The position numbers and the translations under genes are program-made. The notes under the pieces were generated by a model. It made no database searches. It was not told the origin of the DNA and saw only the letters and a list, made by a program, of their open reading frames with translations. A DNA stretch of 64,000 nt from Candidatus Nealsonbacteria bacterium. GTDB lineage: Bacteria; Patescibacteriota; Minisyncoccia; Minisyncoccales; JANBVM01. The DNA lies in contig CP179889.1 in NCBI GenBank assembly GCA_047456315.1, forward strand, positions 512,776-576,775, given 5' to 3'. Shown piece after piece: positions 476 through 31,007 of this stretch. The first letter of the stretch is position 1, and every line of letters starts with the position of its first letter.

Positions 476-952
476 TTATTTATTTTTTTCTTTAATCTGC
501 TTCTTATCTTCTGGCTTTTTTTCATCTTCTTCGTAGCAGGGAAGATTCTTGTAAACTGTTCCCAACACTCCATTGATGAATTTTCCTGAATTCTCTCCGC
601 CAAAAGACTTTGCCAGTTCAATTGCTTCATTAATGGCTACTTTTGGTGGAACTGCTTTCTTATCTACGTAAAGCAATTCATAAATACCAAGTCTTAAAAT
701 ATTTCTATCAACTATTGAAATCTGGTCAATAGGCCACTGAGGAGCAGCTGTTTTAATAATATTATCAATTTCTTTTAAGTGTTTAATCACTTCTGTTACC
801 AGTTCCCAGACAAAAGTTTTATCTTCCAGTCCTGGACCAAACTCCTCAAGATTTCTTTCAATAATAGCGTTCAAATCCAGTTCTTTATTAGAAAAATCCC
901 ACTCATAAAGAGACTGCATTGCTATTGAACGCGAAAGATGACGGCTGGCCAT
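476..952 (-). CDS. nusB: Transcription antitermination factor NusB with Lys/Glu-rich C-terminal tail
   Basis: 158 aa; [13 protein letters not shown]...[18 protein letters not shown] pattern is typical of NusB. Confidence 0.85.
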
Positions 953-986: not shown

Positions 987-1277
987 TTATTTTCTGGACA
1001 AGGACTTCCAGTCCAGAGGTTTTTTCTCAGGTGCTTTTTCAGCCTCTTCTTTTGACTGGATTTCTTTTTCTCTTCTTTTCCTTTCTTTTTTATCTAACTT
1101 AGCAAAAACATCAATAATCTCTCTTCCTTTGTAATAACCGCAGGAAGAACAAAGACTATGGGATAATCGAAAAGCTCCGCACTTTGGACATTTGTTTAAA
1201 TTGGGTTCTTTTAAAAAAATATGCAGTCTTCTCTTGTCTCTTTTTGATTTTGTTCCTCTTTTCTTTGGTACGGCCAT
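987..1277 (-). CDS. rpmF: 50S ribosomal protein L32 with KE-rich C-terminal extension
   Basis: MAVPKKRGTKSKRDKRR N-terminus plus CPKCG..CSSCG zinc knuckle. The ORF track begins 8 codons earlier (1301), but the ATG at 1277 matches the L32 consensus start. Confidence 0.85.
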   Translation of the reverse strand: MAVPKKRGTKSKRDKRRLHIFLKEPNLNKCPKCGAFRLSHSLCSSCGYYKGREIIDVFAKLDKKERKRREKEIQSKEEAEKAPEKKPLDWKSLSRK

Positions 1278-1368
1278 AATAAAAAATGGCTCAATGGCCA
1301 CACTAATAAATGGCTAATTTTATAACTTTAAACTAAATTTATGGAAATTGCAAGTAGAAATGAACAGT

Positions 1369-3090
1369 TTAACTATATTTTATCACTGGTTTGAAACTTT
1401 TCCTGTGAATCTTGCAGGGCCCTAATTCTGCTAAAGCAGATATGTGTTTTTTTGTGCAATAGCCCTTATGACTTCTAAACCCATATTGAGGGTATTTCTT
1501 ATGTTCTCTTCTCATTAATCTGTCCCGACTCACCTTTGCAATTATTGATGCGGAAGCGCAGGAAAAAACCTTATTATCACCCTTAATGATTGATTTTTGA
1601 TGAGTGTCTAAATTGAGTTTTATTCTTCCGTCTAAAATTAAAAAGTCAATTTTCTGATCAAACTTTTTTTCTAAATTTTTAACTGCGCGTTTCATAGCTA
1701 ATTTTGTGGCTTCTAAAACATTAATTCTATCTACAACTTTCTCTGAAGCTTTTCCAATCCCCCACTTTATACCAGAATGATTTGTCAGAACTTTATATAA
1801 CTTTTCTCTTTTTTTTGGTGTAAGTTTCTTGGAATCCCGAACACCTAAATGATTAAATAGCTTAATAGTTGAATTGTTATTGAGTCTGACAATTACTGCA
1901 GCAGCAAATACTGGACCGGACAGACTGTTGCCCGTGAAATAGCCCGTGCCATTTCGTCTCACATAAAAATTATGATATTTAGGAAGTTGCAGACAAAAAA
2001 CTTTTCCTTTATAAAATATATTTTTCTTGTGCAAGGATTTTATTTGAGCTTTATTATTTCTCCGTAACCGAATTTCAAAACAGGGAGCTTGATTTTCTTT
2101 TTTGATTATTCTACCCTCTATACACCCTCCTCTTGGCATTCTCACGCTTGTATGATATGTCCAACCTCTTTTTAATAAAACTTCTTCAAAATCATCTTTT
2201 AATTTCTTAGATACAGTATAATATACACAAACCTCTTTTCTATTTTTCCCAGTATAACAAGCCCCATCTCCCAATATTAACCATTTTATAAGAATATTAA
2301 GTAATCGCGGAGACAATTCTTTAATATCTCGAGGTACAAATTTAGTATAGCAGTTTCCAAGTTGCTTTAAGTATGTATAAAGCTGCTTATTATAACATTT
2401 AAATCCTGTTGCAAATTTACTAAATCTAAAAGGGAATTTTTTGAGCAAAGAATAAATTTTTTTATAGCTATCCTGAGACGCATTTTCGTCTTGAGAAATG
2501 GTTACCCTGTACGAACCCTTCTTCTTGTCGTGGTAAACAGAACCTTCTGATAAAAATATACCCAAAAAAGCAACCCATAATTTAATATCTATAAGTTTTT
2601 CCTCATTTTTATCCACCGTAGGTAATCTAAAAAATTTTGTATCTATTCCTCTCCATTTTCCTCCTCGAGGTATAAAATCATTACCAGACAAGTCACTTAC
2701 TATTTTTCTTTCTTCTCTTGCTTTATATCCAATCAATTTCAATCTATTATTGTCTTTTTTATCTCTCATGAAAACCCTTCTAAGAACAACGAAATAATGG
2801 TCAGGGGTAACAACTATATTTATTCCCCTATTTTTTAATTCTAAAAGATTTCCCTCAAAGTCTTTTTCTATAATTTTCTCTATTTTTTGCCACCTTATAT
2901 AACCATCATTAGTAAAAGATAAAACTTGGTCTTTCTTTAGATTAATATCAGTGTAGAACTTCCAACCATTACTGGTTAATACCTCTGCATCAGACCTTTC
3001 GCAACCACGACCTACTTCATCTATCCCAGCTACAATCTTATATCCCTTTTTCCACAATCTTTTTTCTTCTGAAAAGCTTGGATATTTCAT
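1369..3090 (-). CDS. rnhB: Ribonuclease HII interrupted by an in-frame intein (exteins 29 + 185 aa = 214 aa)
   Basis: N-extein ends GIDEVGRG. The C-extein resumes SLSGPVFAAAVIV...DSKKLT...DGRIKL...ASIIAKVSRD...GYCTKKH, a normal RNase HII once residues 30-388 are removed. Confidence 0.9.
   Translation of the reverse strand: MKYPSFSEEKRLWKKGYKIVAGIDEVGRGCERSDAEVLTSNGWKFYTDINLKKDQVLSFTNDGYIRWQKIEKIIEKDFEGNLLELKNRGINIVVTPDHYFVVLRRVFMRDKKDNNRLKLIGYKAREERKIVSDLSGNDFIPRGGKWRGIDTKFFRLPTVDKNEEKLIDIKLWVAFLGIFLSEGSVYHDKKKGSYRVTISQDENASQDSYKKIYSLLKKFPFRFSKFATGFKCYNKQLYTYLKQLGNCYTKFVPRDIKELSPRLLNILIKWLILGDGACYTGKNRKEVCVYYTVSKKLKDDFEEVLLKRGWTYHTSVRMPRGGCIEGRIIKKENQAPCFEIRLRRNNKAQIKSLHKKNIFYKGKVFCLQLPKYHNFYVRRNGTGYFTGNSLSGPVFAAAVIVRLNNNSTIKLFNHLGVRDSKKLTPKKREKLYKVLTNHSGIKWGIGKASEKVVDRINVLEATKLAMKRAVKNLEKKFDQKIDFLILDGRIKLNLDTHQKSIIKGDNKVFSCASASIIAKVSRDRLMRREHKKYPQYGFRSHKGYCTKKHISALAELGPCKIHRKSFKPVIKYS
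1927..3003 (-). mobile_element. Intein (359 aa) with LAGLIDADG homing-endonuclease domain inside rnhB
   Basis: Starts with Cys (TGC at 3003-3001) directly after DEVGRG. Block B is TPDH. LAGLIDADG-like motifs are FLGIFLSEGS and WLILGDGACY. Ends ...HNFYVRRNGTGYFTGN followed by Ser (+1, AGT at 1926-1924). The penultimate residue is Gly rather than His. Confidence 0.8.
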
Positions 3091-3155: not shown

Positions 3156-6100
3156 ATGTCCAAATTCACTCATCTACATGTCCATAGTCACTACTCTCTT
3201 TTAGATGGTTTGCCTAAAATTGATGATCTTTTGGATTATACAAAAAAACTAGGCATGGATTCTGTTGCCATAACTGATCATGGCGTGCTTTATGGTGCTG
3301 TTGAATTCTTCAAAAAAGCAAAAAAATATGAAGTTAAACCAATAATTGGATGTGAAGCATATGTTGCCTTTAAAGGCATGCACCAGAAAAGAGCTCATAT
3401 TGATAATAGAATATATCATTTAGTTCTTTTAGTTAAAAATGAGATTGGTTATAAAAATCTGGTGAAATTATTGACAAAAGCACACTTAGAAGGATTTTAT
3501 TACAAACCAAGAATTGATGATGAATTGCTGGCCCAATACTCTGAAGGATTAATTGGTCTCTCAGCCTGCTTAAAAGGAAAAATTCCTCAGCTGGTTTTAG
3601 AAAATAAAATTAAAGAAGCAAAAGAAACAGCCCTAAAATACAAGAAAATATTTGGCAATAACAACTTTTATTTGGAACTTCAACATCATCCGAATATAGA
3701 AAAGCAAAAAAAAGTAAATGAGGTTTTAATCTCTTTTTCAAAAGAATTAAAAATTCCTTTAGTAGCAACAAATGATACTCACTATCTAAGACCAGAAGAC
3801 GCCGAAGCCCAGGACACTTTAATGCTTATCAATACCGGCGCTGACCCCAATGACCCTGAGCGCTTAACTATAAAGGCTGATGATTTTTCACTGAAAAAAC
3901 CAGAACAAATGATAAAAGACTTTAAAGATGTTCCAGAAGCTATTGAAAATACCTTGAAAATAGCAGAGCAGTGCAATTTTGAATTTAAACTTGGTGAAAT
4001 TAAACTTCCCAAATTTCAAACACCAAATAATGAAACCCCTCCTCAATATTTAAAAGAACTTTGCAAAGAAGGATTAAAGAAAAAATATGGTCATTTAGTT
4101 AAAAAAGAGGTTACGGATAGATTAAATTATGAGCTGGATATGATAGAAAGAATGGGTTTCTCATCATACTTTTTAATTGTTGCTGATTTTGTAAACTGGG
4201 CAAAAGAAAAGAGAATTGTTGTTGGTCCTGGCAGAGGTTCTGTTGGCGGCTCTTTAGTAGCATATCTGTTAAGCATTACAAGTATTGATCCTTTAAAGTA
4301 TGATCTTCTTTTTGAGCGTTTCTTAAACCCTGCAAGAATTTCAATGCCAGATATTGATCTGGACTTTGCTGACAGAAGAAGAAACGAGGTTATTAGTTAT
4401 GTCACCGAGAAATATGGCAAAGACAAAGTTGCCCAGATCATCACTTTTGGAACAATGGCATCCCGGGCAGTGATAAGAGATGTTGGAAGAGCTCTTAGTT
4501 ATCCTTATGATTATTGTGATCGGATTGCAAAAATGATTCCTTTCGGACACAGCCTAGATGATACTCTGGCAAAAATCCCTGAATTCCGTCAATTATATGA
4601 AACAGATTCAAAAGCTGAAATTTTAATTAATTTAGCCAAGAAACTAGAAGGAGTTGCCCGCCATGCATCAACCCATGCCTGTGGAATAGTTATTTCAGAT
4701 AAACCCTTGGATAATATTGTTCCCTTGCAATACCCTACCCAGAATCATAGTGAAATTGTTACTCAGTATGAAATGCATGCTATTGAAGATTTAGGATTGT
4801 TGAAAATGGACTTTTTAGGATTAAAGAATTTAACAATTATTGAAGATACACTTTCCAGGATTTATGCAATACACAAGAAAAAAATTGATATTGAAAACCT
4901 TCCGTTAAATGACAGACGAACTTATAAGCTGCTTCAAAAAGGACAAACTATTGGTGTTTTTCAGTTAGAATCAGCAGGGTTTCAAAGATATTTAAAACAA
5001 TTAAAACCTGATGAGTTTGAAGACATTATTGCCATGGTAGCGCTTTACAGGCCTGGACCAATATCTTTAATTCCTGAATACATTGCTAGAAAACAAGGAA
5101 AAAGCAAAATTGAATATATTCATCCAAAATTAAAAGATATCCTTAAAAAAACTTATGGTTTGCCGGTTTATCAGGAAGATTTAATGTTTATTGCCCAAAA
5201 ACTAGCTGGATTTTCCATGTCTGAAGCAGATGTTTTAAGAAAAGCTATTGGGAAAAAGATTAAAAAACTATTACTGGAACAGAAACAAAAGCTTATTACA
5301 GGAATAAAGGAAAATGGAATAAAAGAAAGTGTTGCTAGAAAAATATGGGAATGGATTCTGCCTTTTGCTCGCTATGGTTTTAATCGCGCTCACTCAACTG
5401 CCTATGCTACTATTGCCTACCAAACAGCATATTTAAAAACACATTATCCAGTTGAATTTATGTCTGCTCTTTTAACCGCAGAAAAATCAGACGTAGAAAG
5501 AATTGGGTTTTTAATTGATGAGTGTAAAAAAATGGGGATTGAAGTGCTTGCTCCTAATATTAATGAAAGCTGGAGAAACTTCAGCGTTATTCCTCATAAA
5601 AAACAGATGCGCTTTGGTTTGTTTGCAATTAAAAACGTAGGTGAAGGTATTGTTAATACAATTATTGATGAAAGAAAAGAAAGAGGCCCATTTCAATCAA
5701 TTAATGATTTCATCTTAAGAATAAACTCAAAGGGTTTAAATAAAAAATCTTTGGAAAGCTTAATTAAAGCAGGAGCTTTTGATAAGTTTGAAGAAAGAAA
5801 TCAGCTTCTTTTTAATTTAGAAAGATTGTTGAGCTATAGCAGAGAAACACAGAGAATGAAATCAAATGGCCAGATTGGGCTTTTTGATGGAATCCAGACT
5901 TCAACTGAAATAAAACTTGAGACAACAGAGGCAGCAACTAAAAGTGAAAAATTGAGCTGGGAAAAAGAACTTTTAGGGCTTTTTGTCAGCGCTCATCCTC
6001 TAGATGATTACAGGAATATTTTAGAAAAAAAGACAACAAAAATTGCTCAACTAGCCAAATTCCCTACCAGAAGAACCATTAGAATTGGAGGTATAATTTC

Positions 6101-6323
6101 AAAAATTAAAAAAATTATTACTAAAAAAGGCAGGCCAATGCTCTTTATGAGTTTAGAAGATTTATCAGATAAAATTGAGGTTGTGGTATTTCCATCAATT
6201 ATTGAAAAAAAGCCAACTCTCTTTAAAGAAAATAAGATAGTATTTGTTTCAGGGAAAATCAGCAACAGGAGCACCACTCCAAAACTAATCTGTGAAGATA
6301 TTGAAGAGATTATTGAAGCTTAA
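3156..6323 (+). CDS. dnaE: DNA polymerase III alpha subunit
   Basis: 1055 aa; PHP domain start FTHLHVHSHYSLLDG, GSVGGSLVAYLLSIT, PDIDLDF, and an OB fold near the C-terminus. Confidence 0.95.
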   Translation: MSKFTHLHVHSHYSLLDGLPKIDDLLDYTKKLGMDSVAITDHGVLYGAVEFFKKAKKYEVKPIIGCEAYVAFKGMHQKRAHIDNRIYHLVLLVKNEIGYKNLVKLLTKAHLEGFYYKPRIDDELLAQYSEGLIGLSACLKGKIPQLVLENKIKEAKETALKYKKIFGNNNFYLELQHHPNIEKQKKVNEVLISFSKELKIPLVATNDTHYLRPEDAEAQDTLMLINTGADPNDPERLTIKADDFSLKKPEQMIKDFKDVPEAIENTLKIAEQCNFEFKLGEIKLPKFQTPNNETPPQYLKELCKEGLKKKYGHLVKKEVTDRLNYELDMIERMGFSSYFLIVADFVNWAKEKRIVVGPGRGSVGGSLVAYLLSITSIDPLKYDLLFERFLNPARISMPDIDLDFADRRRNEVISYVTEKYGKDKVAQIITFGTMASRAVIRDVGRALSYPYDYCDRIAKMIPFGHSLDDTLAKIPEFRQLYETDSKAEILINLAKKLEGVARHASTHACGIVISDKPLDNIVPLQYPTQNHSEIVTQYEMHAIEDLGLLKMDFLGLKNLTIIEDTLSRIYAIHKKKIDIENLPLNDRRTYKLLQKGQTIGVFQLESAGFQRYLKQLKPDEFEDIIAMVALYRPGPISLIPEYIARKQGKSKIEYIHPKLKDILKKTYGLPVYQEDLMFIAQKLAGFSMSEADVLRKAIGKKIKKLLLEQKQKLITGIKENGIKESVARKIWEWILPFARYGFNRAHSTAYATIAYQTAYLKTHYPVEFMSALLTAEKSDVERIGFLIDECKKMGIEVLAPNINESWRNFSVIPHKKQMRFGLFAIKNVGEGIVNTIIDERKERGPFQSINDFILRINSKGLNKKSLESLIKAGAFDKFEERNQLLFNLERLLSYSRETQRMKSNGQIGLFDGIQTSTEIKLETTEAATKSEKLSWEKELLGLFVSAHPLDDYRNILEKKTTKIAQLAKFPTRRTIRIGGIISKIKKIITKKGRPMLFMSLEDLSDKIEVVVFPSIIEKKPTLFKENKIVFVSGKISNRSTTPKLICEDIEEIIEA

Positions 6324-8358: not shown

Positions 8359-10344
8359 ATGATAAATAAAATTAAATTGTTTTTTACTTTAGCAATTTTA
8401 GGACTAATCTTAGGAAATGCTATTAATGCTCAAGAAACAGACCTCTCACCAGAAATCAGCGACATTAGCTGTAGCCTTGAAGAACCATGTGCCGAGGGAT
8501 TAGAATGTTTCAGTTTTCCAGAAATAGGTTTGAGATGCGCCCAATCTAATCCTTGTAGTTATTATGAGTGTCCTGAAGACACTCAATGTTTTGAAGCTGA
8601 AAGCTATCCTGTTCAAATTATCTGTTCACTATCAGATGGAGCTGAAAATCCAGAAGAAACAATAGTTTCTGCTGAGGCCCAGCAAGAAGTGGATTTAGAC
8701 GAAAACATTCAGCCAGCTGATCTGGAGATTAACCAACCCACAATATTACCTGACAGCCCATTTTACTTCTTCAAAAACATGGGAAGAGCAGTAAGAACCT
8801 TTTTCACCTTTGACCCAGTTAAAAAAGCAGAATTAAAAGAACAGTTCACAGGTGAAAAGTTAATGGAGCTTAAAAGAATGGTTGAAGAGAATAAAAATGC
8901 AAATGCAATCAGAAATGCTGCTCAAAACTATCAGGAGGAACTACAAGGACTGAAAACATTTGCAGAAAGAATAAGAACTACTGCACAGGAAAACGAACAA
9001 GTGGAAAATTTCTTAGACAAATACATTCAGCATAATATTCTTCATCAAAGAGTACTTCAAAAATTAGAAACTCAAGTGCCCGATGAAGTTTTTGAAAAAA
9101 TACAGCAGGTCAGAAACAATCACTTGGATAGATTCAACGATATAATGATTAAACTTGAAGACAAAAATAAAATCCCTGAGAGATTAGAAAAAAACCTAGA
9201 AGCAATAAAAGGAAGCGACTTTAAAGATTTTAAAAACTTAGAAATTCTCGATGACTTAAAAGAAAAGTTTCCTGAAGATATTAGAAATAGAATTGAAGAA
9301 CGAAAAGATAGCATTTTAAACAACTTACGAGAAAAGTTGGAAAACCTTCCAGAAGAACGCCGTGACATCTTAGAAGAATATATTGAAAAAATCAGTGGAG
9401 ATAAAATTAAACAGCTTGATATTTTAAACGCCTTAGAAGGAACAGAGCTCTCAGACAAATTAAATACTGTAATTAAAAGAGTAAAAGAAATCAGTGTCCA
9501 AAGAATAGAAAGCCAATACCAAAACATAGTAACAAAAGAAAAAGTAGAGCTCACAATAACCCAAGCTACAGATTTATTAGCAAAAGTAAAAAGCTTAATT
9601 GTAGAAAAAAACACTACAGCTGAAGAAATACCAGAGATCTTCAGATTAATTGAAGAAGCTGAAGAAAAATTAGAAGCAGCTAAAACAGAATTTGACCAAA
9701 AAAATTATGGCAGAGCTTATAGCCTGGCAATCTCTTCTTCATCCCTTTCAAAAAACGCTATAAGGATTATGGAAATAAGGGCTGGGTTTAAAGAAGATGA
9801 AACTAACCGAGGATTACTAATTTGCGCTGATATTGTTTCCCCTGTCTGTGCTAAGGATGGAAGAACTTATAAGAATATTTGTGAGGCAAAAAAAGCTGAA
9901 GCAGAGATTGTCTATAGAGGAGAATGTAAAACCAATTTAGTTTGCGCTCAGGAAGGTGAACAAATAAACAGAAACCCTCTTCTTGGTCCAGCTGAAAGAA
10001 GGTGTTGCGAAGGATTAGAAGAAATCAGGGTCAGCAGAACTTATAGTATTTGCAAGCAGCCTGGCGCCTCTTTTGAATGTAAAGTTGATAGTGACTGCCC
10101 TCTCCCTCGCTGTCTAACAACAACAGCCACAGCATCAAAATGTGTTGAAGGTAAATGCATACTCCCTGTTTGTTATAAACCAGAAATATGTATCCAGGTT
10201 ATTACTCCAGCTAGAAATTCTAAAACAGGTGAATGCAGAAACTTCCCCACTCCATGCGATGTTCCAGCAGGATGGGAGAGAACTGCAGCTTGTAAAATCC
10301 CGCAACTACTAAAAAGTCAAACTCAATTAAAAATTAGTCAATAA
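8359..10344 (+). CDS. Secreted Cys-rich protein: signal peptide, DUF5667-like segment, long coiled coil, Kazal-like module, Cys-rich C-terminus
   Basis: Signal peptide MINKIKLFFTLAILGLILGNAINAQE. LPDSPFYFFKNMGRAVRTFFTF resembles DUF5667. CADIVSPVCAKDGRTYKNICEAKKAEAEIVYRGEC (9823-9927) matches the Kazal pattern C-x-PVC-x-DG-x-TY-x-N-x-C. Confidence 0.7.
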   Translation: MINKIKLFFTLAILGLILGNAINAQETDLSPEISDISCSLEEPCAEGLECFSFPEIGLRCAQSNPCSYYECPEDTQCFEAESYPVQIICSLSDGAENPEETIVSAEAQQEVDLDENIQPADLEINQPTILPDSPFYFFKNMGRAVRTFFTFDPVKKAELKEQFTGEKLMELKRMVEENKNANAIRNAAQNYQEELQGLKTFAERIRTTAQENEQVENFLDKYIQHNILHQRVLQKLETQVPDEVFEKIQQVRNNHLDRFNDIMIKLEDKNKIPERLEKNLEAIKGSDFKDFKNLEILDDLKEKFPEDIRNRIEERKDSILNNLREKLENLPEERRDILEEYIEKISGDKIKQLDILNALEGTELSDKLNTVIKRVKEISVQRIESQYQNIVTKEKVELTITQATDLLAKVKSLIVEKNTTAEEIPEIFRLIEEAEEKLEAAKTEFDQKNYGRAYSLAISSSSLSKNAIRIMEIRAGFKEDETNRGLLICADIVSPVCAKDGRTYKNICEAKKAEAEIVYRGECKTNLVCAQEGEQINRNPLLGPAERRCCEGLEEIRVSRTYSICKQPGASFECKVDSDCPLPRCLTTTATASKCVEGKCILPVCYKPEICIQVITPARNSKTGECRNFPTPCDVPAGWERTAACKIPQLLKSQTQLKISQ

Positions 10345-10450: not shown

Positions 10451-12613
10451 ATGAAATATTTTATTCTTACCTATGGCTGCCAGATGAATATTTCTGATTC
10501 TGAAAGAATCGCCTCTCTTTTAGAGAATCTCGGCTATCAACCGGCTTTGATTAAAAATAAAGCTGATTTAATAGTGGTTAACATGTGTTCAGTAAGACAA
10601 TCTGCTGTAGATAGAATTTATGGAGCTGGTATAAAATTCCAAAAACTAAAGAAAAAAAACAAGAAACTAAAAACAATTTTAACAGGTTGCATTTCTAAAA
10701 AAGACCATAAAAAACTTATTAAAATATTCGATCTGGTTTTAAATATTAAAAGCTTAAACCAATGGCCGAAATATCTTGAAGCTGGGTTTTCGTCAAAACT
10801 ATGGCCCACTTTACTCCGTCAAACCAGTGAATATTTCAATGTACAGCCCAAACACACAAGCAAGTTTTCAGCTCTAATCCCAATATCTATTGGCTGTAAT
10901 AACTCCTGCGCTTATTGTATTGTTCCTTTTACTCGCGGGCCTTTAATTTGCAGAAGTCATAAAGAAATAATAAAAGAGGTTAAAAAAGCAGTTAAAAATA
11001 GTGCAAAAGAAATATGGCTTTTAGGACAAAACGTTAATGATTATAAATCCCCTATTAATTCTAAAGTAAATTTCGCAAAGCTTTTAAAAATGGTTAATAA
11101 TATTGATGGTGATTTTTGGATAAGATTTACATCTCCAAATCCAAAAGATTTCTCAGATAAATTAATTAACACAATAACCAAATTAGAAAAAGTCACAGAA
11201 TACCTTAACCTGCCAGTTCAGTCTGGGGATAATAAAATTTTAAAAAAAATGAATCGGACTTATACAATTAAAAATTACAAAAATTTAGTTGAGAAAATAA
11301 GGAAAGGAATCCCAGGCATTAGTTTATCAACTGATGTTATTGTTGGTTTTCCAACTGAAACAAAAAAGCAATTCCAAAATACAGCTAAATTATTTAAAGA
11401 AATGAAGTTTGATATGGCATATATTGCTAAGTATTCTCCCCGCCCCCACACAAAAGCCAGCAACTTAAAAGATAATATTTCTAAAAAAGAAAAGAAAAAC
11501 AGATGGATTGCTTTAACAAAAATTCTTGAAAAAACTGCTTTAGAAAACAATAAAAAATATATTGGGAAAGAGGTTAAAGTATTGATAGATGAATATAAGA
11601 AAGGATTCTTGTTTGGAAAAACTAGAACCTATAAAACAGTGAAAATTCCAGCAGTTGATAAAAATTTAGTTGGAAAAATTACGAATGTAAAAATCACTGA
11701 TGCTTTAAGCTGGGGACTGAAAGGAGTTTTAATTAAACCAAAACTAATTGTGATTTTAGGACCTACTGCAGCTGGTAAAACAGGTTTAGCTGTCAAATTA
11801 GCAAGACAATTCAATGGTGAAATTATTTCAGCTGACTCAAGACAAATCTACAAAGAAATGGCTATTGGTACTGCCAAGCCAACGAAAAAAGAAACAAAAG
11901 CTGTCCCCCACCACCTTATTGATTTTGTTTCTCTGAGTAAAGATTTTAATGTTGCAATATATAAAAACAAAGCGTTAAAAGTTATTGAAAAAATATATAA
12001 AAAAGGAAAGGTTCCGTTCCTGGTGGGCGGAACAGGACTATATATTAAAGCAATTGTTGATAATATTGACTTTCCAAAAGTAAAACCTAATAAAAAATTA
12101 AGGGAGCAGTTGGAAAAAAAGAGCACTGGAGAATTATTCAAAATCTATAAAAAACTAGATCCTCAAGGCGCTAAATTAATTGATAAAAACAATAAAAGAA
12201 GATTGGTAAGAGCAATTGAGGTCTCAAAATTAACAGGAAAACCATTCTGGGATCAAAGAAAAAAACAAATCCCTCTTTTTGAAGTTTTGCAAATCGGAAT
12301 AAAACTACCAAAAAAAGAATTAAAAAAGAGAATCTCAAAAAGAACTGATAAAATGTTTAAACTTGGACTTGAAAAAGAACTGAAAAAATTAAAGAAAAAA
12401 TATGTAAAATCACCCTTGCTTCAAACCATTGGCTATGCTGAATGGTTTCAGTATACGGATAAGGAAAAAATAAAAGAAGCTATTAAACTTCATACTCTTC
12501 AATTTGCCAAGCGCCAGATGACCTGGTTTAAAAAAGACAAAAAAATACTTTGGATTAAAAACTATTCCCAAGCTAAATCTCTAATCAAAAGCTTCCTTAA
12601 TAAAAAACTATAG
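10451..12613 (+). CDS. miaB-miaA: Fusion protein: MiaB (tRNA i6A37 methylthiotransferase) + MiaA (tRNA dimethylallyltransferase)
   Basis: Residues 1-428 are MiaB: YGCQMNISDSE, radical-SAM CNNSCAYCIVP, TRAM-like end KITNVKITDALSWGLKG. Residues 429-720 are MiaA: LIVILGPTAAGKTGLAVKLA..EIISADSRQIYKEMAIGTAKP. One uninterrupted frame. Confidence 0.85.
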   Translation: MKYFILTYGCQMNISDSERIASLLENLGYQPALIKNKADLIVVNMCSVRQSAVDRIYGAGIKFQKLKKKNKKLKTILTGCISKKDHKKLIKIFDLVLNIKSLNQWPKYLEAGFSSKLWPTLLRQTSEYFNVQPKHTSKFSALIPISIGCNNSCAYCIVPFTRGPLICRSHKEIIKEVKKAVKNSAKEIWLLGQNVNDYKSPINSKVNFAKLLKMVNNIDGDFWIRFTSPNPKDFSDKLINTITKLEKVTEYLNLPVQSGDNKILKKMNRTYTIKNYKNLVEKIRKGIPGISLSTDVIVGFPTETKKQFQNTAKLFKEMKFDMAYIAKYSPRPHTKASNLKDNISKKEKKNRWIALTKILEKTALENNKKYIGKEVKVLIDEYKKGFLFGKTRTYKTVKIPAVDKNLVGKITNVKITDALSWGLKGVLIKPKLIVILGPTAAGKTGLAVKLARQFNGEIISADSRQIYKEMAIGTAKPTKKETKAVPHHLIDFVSLSKDFNVAIYKNKALKVIEKIYKKGKVPFLVGGTGLYIKAIVDNIDFPKVKPNKKLREQLEKKSTGELFKIYKKLDPQGAKLIDKNNKRRLVRAIEVSKLTGKPFWDQRKKQIPLFEVLQIGIKLPKKELKKRISKRTDKMFKLGLEKELKKLKKKYVKSPLLQTIGYAEWFQYTDKEKIKEAIKLHTLQFAKRQMTWFKKDKKILWIKNYSQAKSLIKSFLNKKL

Positions 12614-22179: not shown

Positions 22180-25100
22180 TTAAACATCAAGATTCTTTAC
22201 CTGTTTAGCATAAGACTGAATGAATTTCTTTCTTGGCAGAACCTCTTTGCCCATTAAAATATCAAATATCCTGTCTGCTTCTCTTTCATCATCAATATTA
22301 ACCTGAAGCAAGGTTCTATTTTCTGGATCCATGGTAGTATCCCAAAGCTCTCCAGCATTCATTTCTCCTAAACCTTTATACCTTTGAATAGAAATATTTG
22401 TGTTTTTCCCAAAGGACTTTATTATCTCCTTGCTCTGACTTTCAGTATAAGCATAATCTATTTTTTTACCAGCCTGGATTTTATATAAAGGCGGCTGGGC
22501 AAGATATAAGTATCCTCTTTCAATTAAAGGTTTAAAGTAACGGTAGAACAAAGTCAAGAGCAGTGTTTTAATATGATTACCATCTGAATTATGCAATAAA
22601 GTTCCGCCAAGACCAGCTACAAAGTTTTGGTCTCCGCAGACTGAAAAATCATAAACAAAATTATCAGGATTTTTAACTTTCTCAATATTTCTGACCTTAA
22701 GACCAATAAAATCTTGAGAGATTGGCTGTAAATATTTACCAATTAGTTTTTTGTAATTTACTTTTTTAAGGTACTCTTTTAACTTCAAACTATCCTTATG
22801 ATTCAACCAGACATTTTTAGTCTCAACCAAATATTCAACAGTAGACACTGACAAATCATAAGACTTAAAGTTAGAACGGATAAGTTTTCCATCTTTCCTA
22901 AAATGATTTTTAGATCGAGACACACTATATGCTGGAAATATTCCCCACTGCCTAAAAATAGTCATTATACCCTGAATAAGTTTTTCAGAAGACAGTCTCC
23001 AGCCATAAATAGCTTTTCTTGGCTTGTCTTTTGGCCAAACTGTAATAAAACCATCACTATGAAGCAAACCTTCAATTAAAGATTCTTGAACTGACTTTTC
23101 TACATTAAAAAAGGTATTAGGAATAAACTTTTCATTACATTTCTTTTTCAAAAGACCTAACTGAGTTAAAAGCAACTTAAATTCAAGAGAATGAAAATGC
23201 AGGTCAATGCTATTAGTATTTTTAGCATAATCTAAAATAGCTTTGGCTCCAAATTTCTTTTCAATAATTTGAGAAAGCTTTTTAATATACTGTTCTGAAT
23301 TTTCCTTATTTAAAGAAATTGAAAATCTGTTTGGATTTTTTTTCTGAAAAGCAGCATAACCATCACCTAAATAAAACCCGATTAAATAACTCAAATCTTT
23401 ACCCAGTTTAAACTTAGTTTTAATAAGCCTAGAATGATTTCTGTAATAGAATTGAACTTCTTCAGCGCTCTTTCCTTTCCAGCTCTTTATTGGAATATAA
23501 AGATTATAATCCAAACCCTTGGAATTTATTTCTATTTGGCTTAAATACTGCTTAAACTGATGAAATCTAGGCATTACATTATCGATCTTCTGTTCCCACT
23601 GCTGAACAACTCTATCATAAACTTTAATCAATTCTCCCATCACTCGTCTGGATATTCCAGTCAACTCTCTTTTTTTCTGAAGTTGATTCCAAGAACCAGA
23701 ATTTAAATCACACCAAGCCATTGCTGGCACTTGTTCTATACGATTCTGAGGAACTTTGACAGAAATATTCTCGAGACCAGAATTTAAAATAGCGTCTTCC
23801 AAATCCATAACATATTCTTTTTCTTGATGAGGAAGCTTTTTAGGAAAAACTAAAATATCTCCTTTTTTAACTTTATCTCCTTTTTTAGTAACAACCTTTC
23901 CATTTTCAAAAACATAAATACTATGGCAAGAAGTTATTTTAATAGGATAACCACAATAAGTCTTGATTTCATATAAAGGAGTACGACGAGGATGACGAAT
24001 AGTCTGATATATATCTTTTAAATCTGATTTCTTATTCTTGGAGTTATATGTTAAAACCTGATATTTTAAAGCATCATCACAATTTTCAATAAATTCCCCA
24101 ACTTCAGTTAAGAAAAACTCCTGTTTTTCTTTATTATAAATAAGAATTGGAGTATCACCAGTTACACTATCAGCATCACACATTATAACAATCCTGTGAT
24201 ATCTGGCTTTTTCAATATCAAAGTCATCAGAAACTGCAGTTCCTAATGCAATAATCAATGACTTAATTTCTTTAGAATTTAATATCTTATCAAGACGAGC
24301 TCTTTCAACATTCAAAATCTTACCACGCAAAGGTAATATAGCCTGAAAATGACGATCCCTGGCCTGACGACTTGAACCTCCGGCTGATTCTCCTTCGACA
24401 ATAAATATCTCTGATTCTTCTGGATTTCTGGAAGTACAATCTGCAAGTTTACCAGGCAGCGCCAAACCATCTAATATCTTTTTTCTTAAAATAGTATCTT
24501 TAGCAGCTTTAGCGGCTTTTCTTGCTTTCTGAGCTAAAGCAAATTTCAGAATAATTGCCCTGGCATCATTTGGATTTCTTTCCAAAAAATCAGCTAAAGC
24601 AACGCTTACAACTTGCTCAACTATTGGCTTGGCTTCAGAATTACCCAGTTTTGATTTTGTCTGGCCTTCAAACTGAGGATCTTTTACCTTAATTGAGATT
24701 ACTGCTGTTAAACCTTCTCTTGTATCTTCTCCAGTAAAGTTGCTATCAGTTTCTTTTAAGAATCCATTCTTTTTTGCGTAGTCATTAAAGGTTCTTGTTA
24801 GGGCAGACCTGAACCCAGTTAAGTGAGTGCCGCCTTCCTGAGTATGAACATTATTAGCAAAAGTTTTTTCAACACATTCAAGATCATCAGTATAGCGAAA
24901 AGCTGACTCAACCAAGATTCCATTCTTTTCTCCCGAACAATAAAAGATGGTTTGGTTAACAGGTGGAGATGTTCTGATTAGGTATTTAATATAAGAAATT
25001 ATTCCTCCTTCAAAATAAACAGCATAAGTTTTATGAGGCTTAACTCTTTGGTCAAAAAAAGTAATCCTTACTCCTTTTGTTAAATAAGCTTGCTGACGAA

Positions 25101-25719
25101 GGTAATTAAGTATTTTCTTTTCATTGAATTTTAATGTGTTAAAAATCTGCTCATCAGGTTCAAAGGTAATAATTGTTCCAGTGGTTCTAGATTTACCCAC
25201 TTTTCTGACCGCTGTTTTTTTCTTGCCCCGGGCATATTCCTGAGAATATCTGTAACCATCCCTGCAAACTTCTACTTTCATGTATTTAGATAAAGCACAA
25301 ACAACTGAGATACCAACACCATGAAGTCCCCCGCTGGTAACATAAGCTTTTCCTCCAAACTTACCTCCAGCATGAAGGGTTGTCATTATTGTTTCCAAAG
25401 CTGATTTTTTTGTTAAGGCATGTCTGTCAACAGGAATTCCTCTTCCATTATCTTCAACCTTAACTCTGTTATTGGGCAAAAGCCAAACTTTAATATCATC
25501 ACAATAACCCATTATCGCCTCATCAATACTATTTCCAACAATTTCTTTTATTAAATGATGCAAACCATCAGGACCTGTTGAACCAATATACATTGCTGGT
25601 CTTTTTCTGACTGGCTCCAATCCCTTCAATACAAAAATATCCTTAGCAGTGTAAGTTGATTTAGTTTTTTTAACTCTTTTTGCTCTAGCTTTTACTTTCT
25701 TTTTAGTTTTTTTAGCCAT
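22180..25719 (-). CDS. gyrB: DNA gyrase subunit B interrupted by an in-frame intein
   Basis: GHKL ATPase (EIVGNSIDEA, NGRGIP, GGLHGVG) and TOPRIM EGESAGGS. The extein junction ..IVIMCDAD | SDGNHIKTLLLTLFYR restores the DxDxDG motif. The ORF track starts at 25749; MAKKTKKK at 25719 is the more likely start. Confidence 0.92.
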   Translation of the reverse strand: MAKKTKKKVKARAKRVKKTKSTYTAKDIFVLKGLEPVRKRPAMYIGSTGPDGLHHLIKEIVGNSIDEAIMGYCDDIKVWLLPNNRVKVEDNGRGIPVDRHALTKKSALETIMTTLHAGGKFGGKAYVTSGGLHGVGISVVCALSKYMKVEVCRDGYRYSQEYARGKKKTAVRKVGKSRTTGTIITFEPDEQIFNTLKFNEKKILNYLRQQAYLTKGVRITFFDQRVKPHKTYAVYFEGGIISYIKYLIRTSPPVNQTIFYCSGEKNGILVESAFRYTDDLECVEKTFANNVHTQEGGTHLTGFRSALTRTFNDYAKKNGFLKETDSNFTGEDTREGLTAVISIKVKDPQFEGQTKSKLGNSEAKPIVEQVVSVALADFLERNPNDARAIILKFALAQKARKAAKAAKDTILRKKILDGLALPGKLADCTSRNPEESEIFIVEGESAGGSSRQARDRHFQAILPLRGKILNVERARLDKILNSKEIKSLIIALGTAVSDDFDIEKARYHRIVIMCDADSVTGDTPILIYNKEKQEFFLTEVGEFIENCDDALKYQVLTYNSKNKKSDLKDIYQTIRHPRRTPLYEIKTYCGYPIKITSCHSIYVFENGKVVTKKGDKVKKGDILVFPKKLPHQEKEYVMDLEDAILNSGLENISVKVPQNRIEQVPAMAWCDLNSGSWNQLQKKRELTGISRRVMGELIKVYDRVVQQWEQKIDNVMPRFHQFKQYLSQIEINSKGLDYNLYIPIKSWKGKSAEEVQFYYRNHSRLIKTKFKLGKDLSYLIGFYLGDGYAAFQKKNPNRFSISLNKENSEQYIKKLSQIIEKKFGAKAILDYAKNTNSIDLHFHSLEFKLLLTQLGLLKKKCNEKFIPNTFFNVEKSVQESLIEGLLHSDGFITVWPKDKPRKAIYGWRLSSEKLIQGIMTIFRQWGIFPAYSVSRSKNHFRKDGKLIRSNFKSYDLSVSTVEYLVETKNVWLNHKDSLKLKEYLKKVNYKKLIGKYLQPISQDFIGLKVRNIEKVKNPDNFVYDFSVCGDQNFVAGLGGTLLHNSDGNHIKTLLLTLFYRYFKPLIERGYLYLAQPPLYKIQAGKKIDYAYTESQSKEIIKSFGKNTNISIQRYKGLGEMNAGELWDTTMDPENRTLLQVNIDDEREADRIFDILMGKEVLPRKKFIQSYAKQVKNLDV
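22588..24168 (-). mobile_element. Intein (527 aa) with LAGLIDADG homing-endonuclease domain inside gyrB
   Basis: Starts SVTGDTPILIY (Ser1, AGT at 24168-24166). Block B is TSCHS. LAGLIDADG motifs are LIGFYLGDGYA and LIEGLLHSDGF. Ends VYDFSV..NFVAGLGGTLLHN followed by Ser (+1, TCA at 22587-22585). Confidence 0.85.
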
Positions 25720-25771
25720 AATTTTTAACTGAATTAAAATAAAAAACAATTCTTAACCAGAACTAATACTG

Positions 25772-30714: not shown

Positions 30715-30752
30715 TATACAATTACATCCAATTACATACAATTTTGCGGGGA
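30715..30752. repeat. Direct repeat copy B (tRNA-Asp 3' end plus 31-nt downstream flank)
   Basis: tatacaattacatccAattACatacaatttt (30715-30745) + gcgggga (30746-30752, the 3' acceptor end of tRNA-Asp). Confidence 0.75.
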
Positions 30753-30820
30753 CGACGGGACTCGAACCCGCAACCTCTGGATCGACAATCCAGAGCTCTA
30801 ACCAATTGAGCTACGTCCCC
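30747..30820 (-). tRNA. tRNA-Asp (GUC)
   Basis: Reverse complement GGGGACG TA GCTC AATTGGTTA GAGC T CTGGA TTGTCGA TCCAG AGGTT GCGGG TTCGAGT CCCGT CGTCCCC G. Canonical cloverleaf; CCA not encoded. Confidence 0.92.
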
Positions 30821-30849
30821 TTATTCAAAAATCACAAATAGTGATTTTG

Positions 30850-30922
30850 TGCCGGTGACAGGAGTTGCACCCGTAACCTTGAGCTTATGATGCTCCTGCT
30901 CTAACTGTTGAGCTACACCGGC
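30850..30922 (-). tRNA. tRNA with CAU anticodon (elongator Met or Ile2), atypical T-loop
   Basis: GCCGGTG TA GCTC AACAGTTA GAGC A GGAGC ATCATAA GCTCA AGGTT ACGGG TGCAACT CCTGT CACCGGC A. G1:C72 pair. T-loop is UGCAACU (G at position 55) and the D-loop lacks GG. Confidence 0.75.
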
Positions 30923-30936
30923 TCTACCAAAGAATG

Positions 30937-31007
30937 TTGCGGTGCCCCGAATTGCACGGGGGTCTCCAGCTTATGGGACTGGCGAGGTACTACTCCTCTA
31001 CACCGCG
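30937..31007 (-). tRNA. Initiator-like tRNA-fMet (CAU), atypical loops
   Basis: CGCGGTG TA GAGG AGTAGTA CCTC G CCAGT CCCATAA GCTGG AGAC CCCCG TGCAATT CGGGG CACCGCA A. The C1xA72 mismatch and A11:U24 pair are initiator hallmarks. The anticodon loop has C33, and the T-loop is UGCAAUU. Confidence 0.7.

Follow-up and report, generated by a model that had tools for sequence, protein, structure and literature searches.

A probably active LAGLIDADG intein with a Gly-Asn C-terminus in the RNase HII gene of a Candidatus Nealsonbacteria bacterium

To our knowledge, ribonuclease HII (RNase HII) is not among the classical host proteins of inteins. Prokaryotic RNase HII inteins, together with those of Anaeramoeba, have been grouped as 'cluster 18' (Gallot-Lavallee et al., PNAS 2023; PMC10710043). 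Here, we analyse an intein within the RNase HII gene (rnhB) of Candidatus Nealsonbacteria, located in a 64,000-nucleotide stretch of assembly GCA_047456315.1 (contig CP179889.1, positions 512,776 to 576,775 of the forward strand; hereafter, the window). We consider it very likely that this element is a genuine, splicing-competent and bifunctional intein, consisting of a HINT domain and a LAGLIDADG endonuclease, with both splicing and homing inferred. Judging by its conserved residues, it is probably of the class 1 type and active, despite a C-terminus that ends in Gly-Asn.

An intein directly after the catalytic DEVGRG motif

The rnhB open reading frame (ORF) encodes a 573-residue precursor which reads MKYPSFSEEKRLWKKGYKIVAGIDEVGRG↓CERSDAEVLT ... 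GTGYFTGN↓SLSGPVFAAAV (arrows mark the predicted splice junctions). The insertion point can be read from an empty-site orthologue. In a closely related genome (GCA_964450805.1, locus L001), the gene order thrS-dnaE-rnhB-rpmF-nusB-rnc-rpsP is the same as in the window, and the intein-less rnhB product of 215 amino acids reads DEAGRG↓SLSGPV at the site (GGTTTAGATGAAGCAGGACGAGGA↓TCATTGTCTGGTCCAGTAGTTGCT), so that, by alignment, its junction corresponds exactly to the predicted splice site. Removal in silico of the 359-residue insert, precursor residues 30-388, leaves a product of 214 amino acids which aligns end to end with Thermotoga maritima RNase HII (3O3G/2ETJ; E 2e-42), without a gap at the junction, where the T. 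maritima enzyme reads DEAGRGCLAGPV. The initial annotation had proposed precisely this 573-residue ORF and 214-residue product, and its coordinates for the insert, 1927..3003 on the minus strand, are exact. In the alignment of the spliced product with 3O3G, DE..GRG, (V/L)DG, KGD and KGY are conserved; we take the DE, DG and KGD residues to have the catalytic roles of their T. maritima counterparts. The Pfam RNase_HII match (PF01351, 4e-31) is confined to precursor residues 390-568, and the precursor passes the NCBIfam RNase HII equivalogue model NF000595 (205 bits versus a cut-off of 167). By this alignment, the intein lies between the first two catalytic carboxylates (the Asp-Glu pair of DEVGRG) and the remainder of the active site, including the two other catalytic Asp residues, and the unspliced precursor is therefore unlikely to work as an RNase HII. 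A BIL or other autoproteolytic Hint domain was considered and is ruled out by the +1 nucleophile and the exact restoration of the host motif.

Profile and fold evidence converge on the same assignment. The precursor passes the cut-off of TIGR01443 (intein_Cterm) and, narrowly, that of Pfam LAGLIDADG_3 (3e-5; 24.5 bits versus 22.5), matches TIGR01445 (intein_Nterm) weakly, and its intein also weakly matches the NCBIfam model of the intein-containing RpoA'', NF011491 (9e-5). The best profile matches in the PDB are PI-PkoII (1.5e-17) and the TliVMA intein (3e-17), both of which have Asp at position F:4. The 359 residues were modelled with AlphaFold2 from a 59-sequence alignment (mean predicted local distance difference test score 96.2, predicted template modelling score 0.92). 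The model is all-beta to about residue 139 and continues as alpha/beta repeats, with helices at 140-153 and 232-246; both LAGLIDADG helices end in an acidic residue, Glu153 and Asp246. Compared with the PDB by Foldseek, the model matches the TliVMA intein best (9e-16), followed by PI-SceI (2e-12), PI-PfuI (4e-12), the PhoVMA intein and PI-TkoII, with E-values for solved LAGLIDADG inteins of 1e-10 to 1e-15 overall. Free-standing LAGLIDADG enzymes (I-DmoI, I-SceI and I-AniI) occupy the lower ranks and Hint-only proteins (Hedgehog, mini-inteins and BIL domains) the last, an order which, for this predicted structure, is the hallmark of a LAGLIDADG endonuclease nested within a HINT domain. Profiles, fold and the alignment of the spliced product thus support the original proposal of a LAGLIDADG intein directly after DEVGRG of RNase HII.

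The motifs named in the initial annotation, namely, TPDH, FLGIFLSEGS, WLILGDGACY, a block F-like stretch (VFCLQLPKYHNF, at 1966..2004, minus strand) and the terminal Gly-Asn followed by Ser, were all found at the positions given there. What had gone unnoticed in the block F-like stretch is the Cys at F:4, where most inteins have Asp. Block positions are numbered after Tori et al. (PMC2807308); Thr66, His69 and Phe71 occupy B:7, B:10 and B:12, respectively, and profile alignment places the family's 'VyCl' onto VYDL/VYDI of PI-PkoII and the TliVMA intein, which makes Cys337 the F:4 residue. The predicted features are as follows.

1369..3090, minus strand: rnhB precursor ORF, 573 codons, RNase HII with a single intein (ORF list; RNase_HII and NF000595 matches)
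3004..3090, minus strand: N-extein, residues 1-29, with GIDEVGRG, the catalytic motif that contains Asp24 and Glu25, at its end (aligned with VAGVDEAGRG in T. maritima RNase HII and with the L001 N-terminus)
1927..3003, minus strand: intein of 359 amino acids, Cys1 to Asn359, precursor residues 30-388 (boundaries set by the empty-site orthologue L001)
2599..3003, minus strand: HINT N-terminal part, intein residues 1-135 (approximate boundary), with Cys1 and block B (AlphaFold model all-beta to about residue 139; weak TIGR01445 intein_Nterm match)
2797..2808, minus strand: block B core TPDH, Thr66 at B:7 and His69 at B:10 (sequence and conservation)
2029..2598, minus strand: LAGLIDADG homing-endonuclease domain, intein residues ~136-325 (Pfam LAGLIDADG_3; alpha/beta repeats in the model; Foldseek)
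2539..2568, minus strand: LAGLIDADG motif 1, FLGIFLSEGS, catalytic Glu153 (sequence; conservation in RNase HII inteins)
2254..2283, minus strand: LAGLIDADG motif 2, WLILGDGACY, catalytic Asp246 (sequence; conservation in RNase HII inteins)
1927..2028, minus strand: HINT C-terminal part, intein residues 326-359, blocks F and G (model; profile alignment; TIGR01443)
1966..2004, minus strand: block F, KVFCLQLPKYHNF; Cys337 occupies F:4, where Asp is usual, and His344 is the block F His, in the HNF motif (profile alignment)
1924..1941, minus strand: block G and C-terminal splice junction YFTGN↓S, with Thr357 at G:5, Gly358 at G:6, Asn359 at G:7 and Ser at +1
1369..1926, minus strand: C-extein, residues 389-573 and the stop codon, the remainder of RNase HII with two catalytic Asp residues (ILDG, KGDNK) and KGY (contiguous alignment to T. 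maritima RNase HII)

On one side, rnhB is flanked by rpmF (987..1301, minus strand) and nusB (476..952, minus strand), and on the other by the divergently transcribed dnaE (3156..6323, plus strand), followed by thrS.

The Gly-Asn end and the wider intein clade

The junctions carry the residues that splicing calls for, Cys1, the C-terminal Asn359 and Ser at +1, and Cys1, Thr B:7 and His B:10 of class 1 inteins are all present. By contrast, two typical, although not strictly defining, assisting residues of class 1 are absent, with Gly358 in place of His G:6 and Cys337 in place of Asp F:4. The initial annotation had linked the absence of a penultimate His to poor splicing or a need for compensating features. 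A poorly splicing or anomalous intein is not supported, in view of the occurrence of Gly at this position in all 70 full-length RNase HII inteins and in 165 of the 180 members sampled from the wider clade, of purifying selection and of the strict retention of the splice residues (see below). Nor is a penultimate His needed by every intein: His G:6 is dispensable in some, about 5% of inteins carry another residue, reversion to His improves some and impairs others, and the Ssp and Npu DnaE inteins splice well without it (PMC4031507), the residue at G:6 being Ala or Ser in cyanobacterial DnaE inteins (PMC5874633). At F:4, Cys is the second most frequent residue overall (PMC4031507).

To place the intein in its clade, we searched 1.84 billion cluster representatives exhaustively with phmmer and obtained 6548 proteins at E<=1e-3, many of them with 2-6 intein copies, and 351 at E<=1e-30. 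Sampled from the 150 best matches, 146 new proteins provided 180 full-length intein domains with the following residues.

Residue 1: Cys in 175 of 180
B:7: Thr in 175 of 180
B:10: His in 180 of 180
F:4: Cys in 154, Asp in 15, Ser in 9 of 180
Position of Arg350: Arg in 163 of 180
G:5: Ser in 75, Cys in 62, Thr in 27 of 180
G:6: Gly in 165, His in 6 of 180
G:7: Asn in 176 of 180
+1: Ser in 122, Cys in 30, Thr in 27 of 180

The Gly-Asn end is therefore the consensus of the clade rather than a lesion, and across the clade Gly G:6 is usually accompanied by Cys, not Asp, at F:4. The hosts of these inteins include phage portal proteins, PurD, GT1 glycosyltransferases, B12-radical SAM proteins, RpoB, T4-type prohead proteases, a DNA methylase, an AAA ATPase and ThyX, among others. 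The closest relatives outside RNase HII, P0079 (601 amino acids, labelled Euryarchaeota at NCBI) and P0214 (575 amino acids), are 37% and 47% identical, respectively. Their inteins, one of which (P0214) starts with Ser, have Asp at F:4 and the same Gly-Asn end, and follow an 'IDDSGWG' motif in an uncharacterized family without a Pfam match. As this motif resembles 'IDEAGRG' of RNase HII, the insertion may represent an ectopic jump between look-alike target sites.

The window contains a second intein, in the gyrB ORF (22180..25749, minus strand; 1189 amino acids), which spans about 22588..24168 (527 amino acids; Pfam Intein_splicing 2.5e-18). Its junctions read IVIMCDAD↓SVTGDTPIL...LLHN↓SDGNHIKTLL, with Ser1 and a canonical His-Asn end followed by Ser, in contrast to the Gly-Asn end of the rnhB intein.

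The most likely route for the rnhB intein is the standard class 1 pathway. Following translation of the 573-residue precursor, Cys1 would form a thioester at the Gly29-Cys1 bond, assisted by Thr66 and His69 of block B; attack of Ser+1 on this thioester would yield the branched intermediate; cyclization of Asn359 would release the intein; and an O-to-N shift would complete a normal 214-residue RNase HII with DEVGRG-SLSGPV restored. In the cyclization step, the part of the missing His G:6 may be taken by His344, by Arg350 and Gly352 of the F-G loop and by Thr357 at G:5, whereas Cys337, at the central F:4 position, might have a coordinating role.

A bolder, rather unlikely reading is that the clade, whose members in metagenomic bacteria, archaea and phages run into the thousands, represents a very large and mechanistically distinct subclass of Cys1 inteins. 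The pair of Asp F:4 and His G:6 would, as a single unit, have given way to Cys F:4 and Gly G:6, along with a small nucleophilic residue at G:5 and an invariant Arg-x-Gly motif in a lengthened F-G loop. If so, Asn cyclization and the coordination of the steps would rely on chemistry unlike that of textbook class 1 inteins, for instance, Arg-assisted cyclization, a transient thioester at F:4 or a built-in redox gate between Cys1 and Cys F:4. The combination of Cys F:4 and Gly G:6 occurs in none of the solved structures matched by Foldseek or by profile search and is not set apart as a clade in two reviews (PMC4031507, PMC7765530), and our literature search found no report of a tested clade member.

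Distribution, selection and mobility of RNase HII inteins

The initial annotation had suggested that the insertion might be a rare or new allele and that databases be searched for rnhB inteins at this site. Queried with the intein alone, they returned 92 proteins, about 75 of which are RNase HII of 545-607 amino acids with inteins at the same site, 42-82% identical to the query. Phyletic distribution was drawn from the source names of the protein matches, which, for the RNase HII carriers, are Nealsonbacteria, Paceibacterota and 'Patescibacteria group'; a scan of genome contigs with derived peptide patterns, which turned out to be too specific, recovered a single locus (UBA6257). The allele is a minority one: the best 120 matches to the spliced extein, 58-82% identical and all of about 214 amino acids, are without exception intein-less. 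Hence, 'rare' is apt in this sense, but 'new' is not, given about 75 public protein clusters and the presence in NCBI of the exact 573-residue protein ('MAG: ribonuclease HII [Candidatus Nealsonbacteria bacterium]'). The RNase HII intein allele is abundant in public data and has already been catalogued, at least in passing.

All of the approximately 75 carriers read GRG↓CE ... YF(T/S)GN↓(S/C). Across the 70 full-length RNase HII inteins, Cys1, Thr10, His69, Gly148, Gly154, Gly245, Cys337, Asn345, Arg350, Gly352, Gly358 and Asn359 are invariant, Thr66, His344 and Thr357 are each retained in 68, B:12 is Phe in 69, and the LAGLIDADG acids are kept in 67 (Glu153) and 68 (Asp246). At +1, 55 of them have Ser and 15 have Cys. 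In the best 120 intein-less homologues, by comparison, GRG is followed by Pro in 91, Ser in 13, Ala in 10 and Cys in 6, and in the closest of them almost always by Pro. With +1 always Ser or Cys in the carriers, the intein thus never occurs here without a nucleophile at +1, which is what a requirement for splicing would predict. The initial annotation had named decayed splicing blocks as a sign of a dead insertion; in the 70 aligned sequences, the splice-site residues are invariant down to 42% identity.

Some database copies are nevertheless broken. P0071 and P0073, from the same 7431-bp ENA contig, together make up one intein split into two ORFs within the endonuclease domain; in P0076 and P0081, there is fusion to an FtsX-like membrane protein and divergence into unrelated sequence past residue ~120. 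These copies are either decaying alleles or artefacts of assembly or frameshift. In one further family member, P0072, the second LAGLIDADG motif is partly missing. Matches of 220-310 amino acids (P0073, P0074, P0077, P0078, P0080 and P0082) were considered as mini-inteins and rejected, as they are N-terminally truncated or split gene calls which start inside the endonuclease domain. An intein of this clade, 34% identical, also occupies the GRG↓...GN↓S site of P0294 (624 amino acids), an RNase HII which is much more diverged and differs in amino-acid composition; the site has been either long occupied or invaded more than once.

Both the splicing and the endonuclease parts are under purifying selection: between the window and locus L003, the ratio of non-synonymous to synonymous divergence (dN/dS, Nei-Gojobori) is 0.12 for HINT-N, 0.17 for the endonuclease, 0.12 for HINT-C and 0.14 for the extein. 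The nearest intein (82% identity) resides in an extein that is only 59% identical, whereas exteins up to 82% identical are intein-less, and in 95% of 2415 pairs the inteins are more alike than their exteins. When the window, L003, L007 and L008 are compared with one another, synonymous divergence (dS) is 0.64-1.03 for the intein versus 1.8 to saturated for the extein. Protein constraint does not explain a lower dS, and the intein DNA would therefore have spread after the host genes had diverged, that is, by homing. The endonuclease, with both acids kept, would cut intein-less rnhB at the sequence coding for DE(A/V)GRG↓(S/C)L(A/S)GP, and the intein would be copied into the cut allele, leading to recent spread among divergent Paceibacteria-type genomes. 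Recent horizontal spread among lineages is the simplest reading of these sequence comparisons. The codon of the +1 Ser offers only a hint in this direction: it is AGT in all five intein-containing alleles examined (window, 1924..1926; L003, L006, L007 and L008) and TCA in the empty L001 allele (4079..4081), and AGT is one step from TGT (Cys) but not from CCN (Pro), which is compatible with the first extein codon travelling with the intein by co-conversion. A tblastn search against phage genomes recovered only distant relatives (~26% identity), in Lak megaphages and others, and none with this intein.

Several observations speak against a splicing-competent intein that is still spreading by homing. 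The Pfam Intein_splicing match over precursor residues 64-377 (9e-7), at 29 bits, is below the gathering score of 35.8, and single-sequence phmmer of the intein against the PDB matched no intein; therefore, the family assignment rests on profile and fold. The parts assigned above to Arg350, His344 and Cys337 are guessed from how conserved these residues are and from where they lie in other inteins. Broken alleles, whether split ORFs or chimeras, show that decay does occur. In pairs with L006, the intein has a dS of about 2 and does not differ from the extein in this respect, and the lower intein dS in the other pairs could stem in part from composition or codon constraints rather than transfer. 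Finally, intein and extein identities are correlated (Spearman 0.63), much of the distribution thus being vertical, so that the inheritance of the RNase HII intein, as read from these comparisons, is a mixture of vertical and horizontal. In L006 (1..2815), the dnaE next to the intein-containing rnhB is called as four fragments of 38-476 amino acids; this is probably a frameshift error of the assembly and not biology, and calls for caution with the L006 dS values.

The correlation of intein and extein identities could be accommodated by an old, vertically inherited and repeatedly lost intein which has been domesticated as a post-translational switch, for example, a redox switch involving Cys1 and Cys337, with its conservation reflecting function. 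The intein is indeed more conserved than the host protein in nearly all pairs, the positions of the two cysteines are next to each other in the active site of HINT domains, and the Msm DnaBi1 intein provides a documented case of redox control via a cysteine in block F (PMC6195587). We nonetheless regard domestication as unlikely: in several pairs, the flanking extein exceeds the intein in dS by a factor of two to three or more, for which protein constraint is no explanation, the closest exteins are intein-less with Pro at +1, and the retention of the endonuclease acids, under purifying selection as in the splicing domain, is what is expected of an element that still homes.

With respect to annotation, the 573-residue 'ribonuclease HII' and its approximately 75 relatives are listed without mention of an intein, whereas the predicted true products are a 214-residue enzyme and a free homing endonuclease. 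Mobile elements have seldom been reported from the reduced genomes of Patescibacteria, and the locus adds a clear case, apparently of an intein that is still spreading; our literature search on inteins and Patescibacteria found nothing specific.

Three other features of the window deserve mention. The ORF at 10451..12613 (plus strand; 720 amino acids) encodes a MiaB-type methylthiotransferase (UPF0004, Radical_SAM, TRAM) fused to MiaA (IPPT, 3e-74), that is, two consecutive tRNA-A37 modification enzymes on one polypeptide. At 30746..31007 (minus strand) lie tRNA-Asp(GTC) and two tRNA-Met(CAT), only two of the three being reported by Rfam at the gathering threshold. A 661-residue ORF at 8359..10344 (plus strand) contains DUF5667 and a Kazal-type inhibitor-like segment.

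Comparison with known inteins

Class 3 inteins, which lack an N-terminal nucleophile and instead have Trp B:12, Cys F:4 and Thr G:5 (PMC2807308), provide the nearest mechanistic alternative. The rnhB intein resembles members of this class with the WCT motif (MP-Be DnaB, Msm DnaBi1 and AceL NrdHF) in Cys F:4 and Thr G:5, and the distance from Cys F:4 to the terminal Asn is 22 residues, as between C124 and N146 of AceL NrdHF. Its +1 residue is Ser. It differs from them in its invariant Cys1, Thr B:7, Phe B:12 and Gly G:6. Membership in class 3 is accordingly rejected, because Cys1 is present and B:12 is not Trp, leaving the WCT motif incomplete even though Cys F:4 and Thr G:5 fit. A hybrid might still be envisaged, in which Cys337 serves as an obligatory first or additional nucleophile, with a branched thioester at block F, and Gly G:6 belongs to a rebuilt active site. 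Such a design would agree with the conservation of Cys F:4 (70 of 70 RNase HII inteins, 154 of 180 in the clade) and its co-occurrence with the loss of His G:6, with Thr, Ser or Cys at G:5 as the counterpart of T in WCT, which contacts the block B His in class 3 structures, and with the central location of the class 3 Cys F:4 between both junctions, where class 1 has Asp (PMC6195587). The hybrid is, however, very unlikely, considering that Cys1 is invariant in the RNase HII inteins and present in 175 of the 180 clade domains, that B:7 is Thr as in class 1 and not the Asp usual in class 3 (PMC6195587), that B:12 is Phe, Met or Leu and not the class 3 Trp, that Cys is already the second commonest F:4 residue (PMC4031507) and that 15 clade members, P0079 and P0214 included, combine Asp F:4 with the same Gly-Asn end, making Cys F:4 dispensable for the clade. 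A dead or decaying insertion, in which the Gly-Asn end would abolish splicing and rnhB would be effectively a pseudogene or function as the large precursor, can point to the absent penultimate His, to the split or chimeric alleles (P0071/P0073, P0076, P0081) and to the truncated second motif of P0072, but is hardly tenable in view of splice-site residues invariant over such divergence, a nucleophile always at +1 versus Pro in 76% of intein-less relatives, dN/dS of ~0.15 in intein and extein alike, intact RNase HII catalytic residues and KGY, and the DE and DD residues whose separation would probably disable the unspliced enzyme.

The preferred reading remains that of a class 1-type intein. It leaves current understanding in place, and the RNase HII insertion is already in the literature. 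If splicing is efficient, the element would be a compact natural example of the joint replacement of the penultimate His and the block F Asp, and its clade could supply new splicing scaffolds.

Among described systems, the closest is cluster 18, which shares the host protein and, according to the paper that defined it, occupies homologous sites in prokaryotes and A. flamelloides (PMC10710043). The rnhB intein is very probably a member of this set, the likeness being one of host protein, as the text of the paper does not give the site. Its main text, as far as it deals with cluster 18, contains nothing on site, sequence, mechanism, the Gly-Asn end, Cys F:4 or recent mobility, and no other relevant paper was found in the literature on inteins and RNase HII.

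In architecture, the rnhB intein matches the solved bifunctional class 1 inteins TliVMA/PhoVMA (7QSU, 7QSS, 7QST), PI-SceI (1VDE), PI-PfuI (1DQ3) and PI-TkoII (2CW7), all with a HINT domain shaped like a horseshoe and, nested in it, an endonuclease with two LAGLIDADG motifs, at Foldseek template modelling scores of ~0.5-0.6 but only 10-17% sequence identity. Cys1, TxxH and the terminal Asn are common to all, and a profile alignment matches up blocks A, B, F and G. The solved inteins end in His-Asn, whereas the rnhB intein has Gly at G:6, Cys at F:4 (VFCL in block F versus VYDL/VYDI of PI-PkoII/TliVMA) and an F-G loop longer by three residues, with an invariant Arg-x-Gly. At 359 amino acids versus 454-537, it also has none of the additional DNA-recognition or stirrup domains found in PI-SceI and PI-PfuI.

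Precedents for splicing without the penultimate His come from several quarters. Work by Chen, Benner and Perler in 2000 is said to have shown that the PEP synthase and RpoA' inteins of Methanocaldococcus jannaschii splice in this way, the latter presumably with Gly at G:6. The cyanobacterial DnaE split inteins, with Ala or Ser at this position, are likewise active by virtue of other assisting residues (PMC5874633, PMC4031507). However, whereas the known inteins with a residue other than His at G:6 are individual exceptions, amounting to ~5%, here a clade of thousands of inteins has Gly as its consensus residue at G:6.

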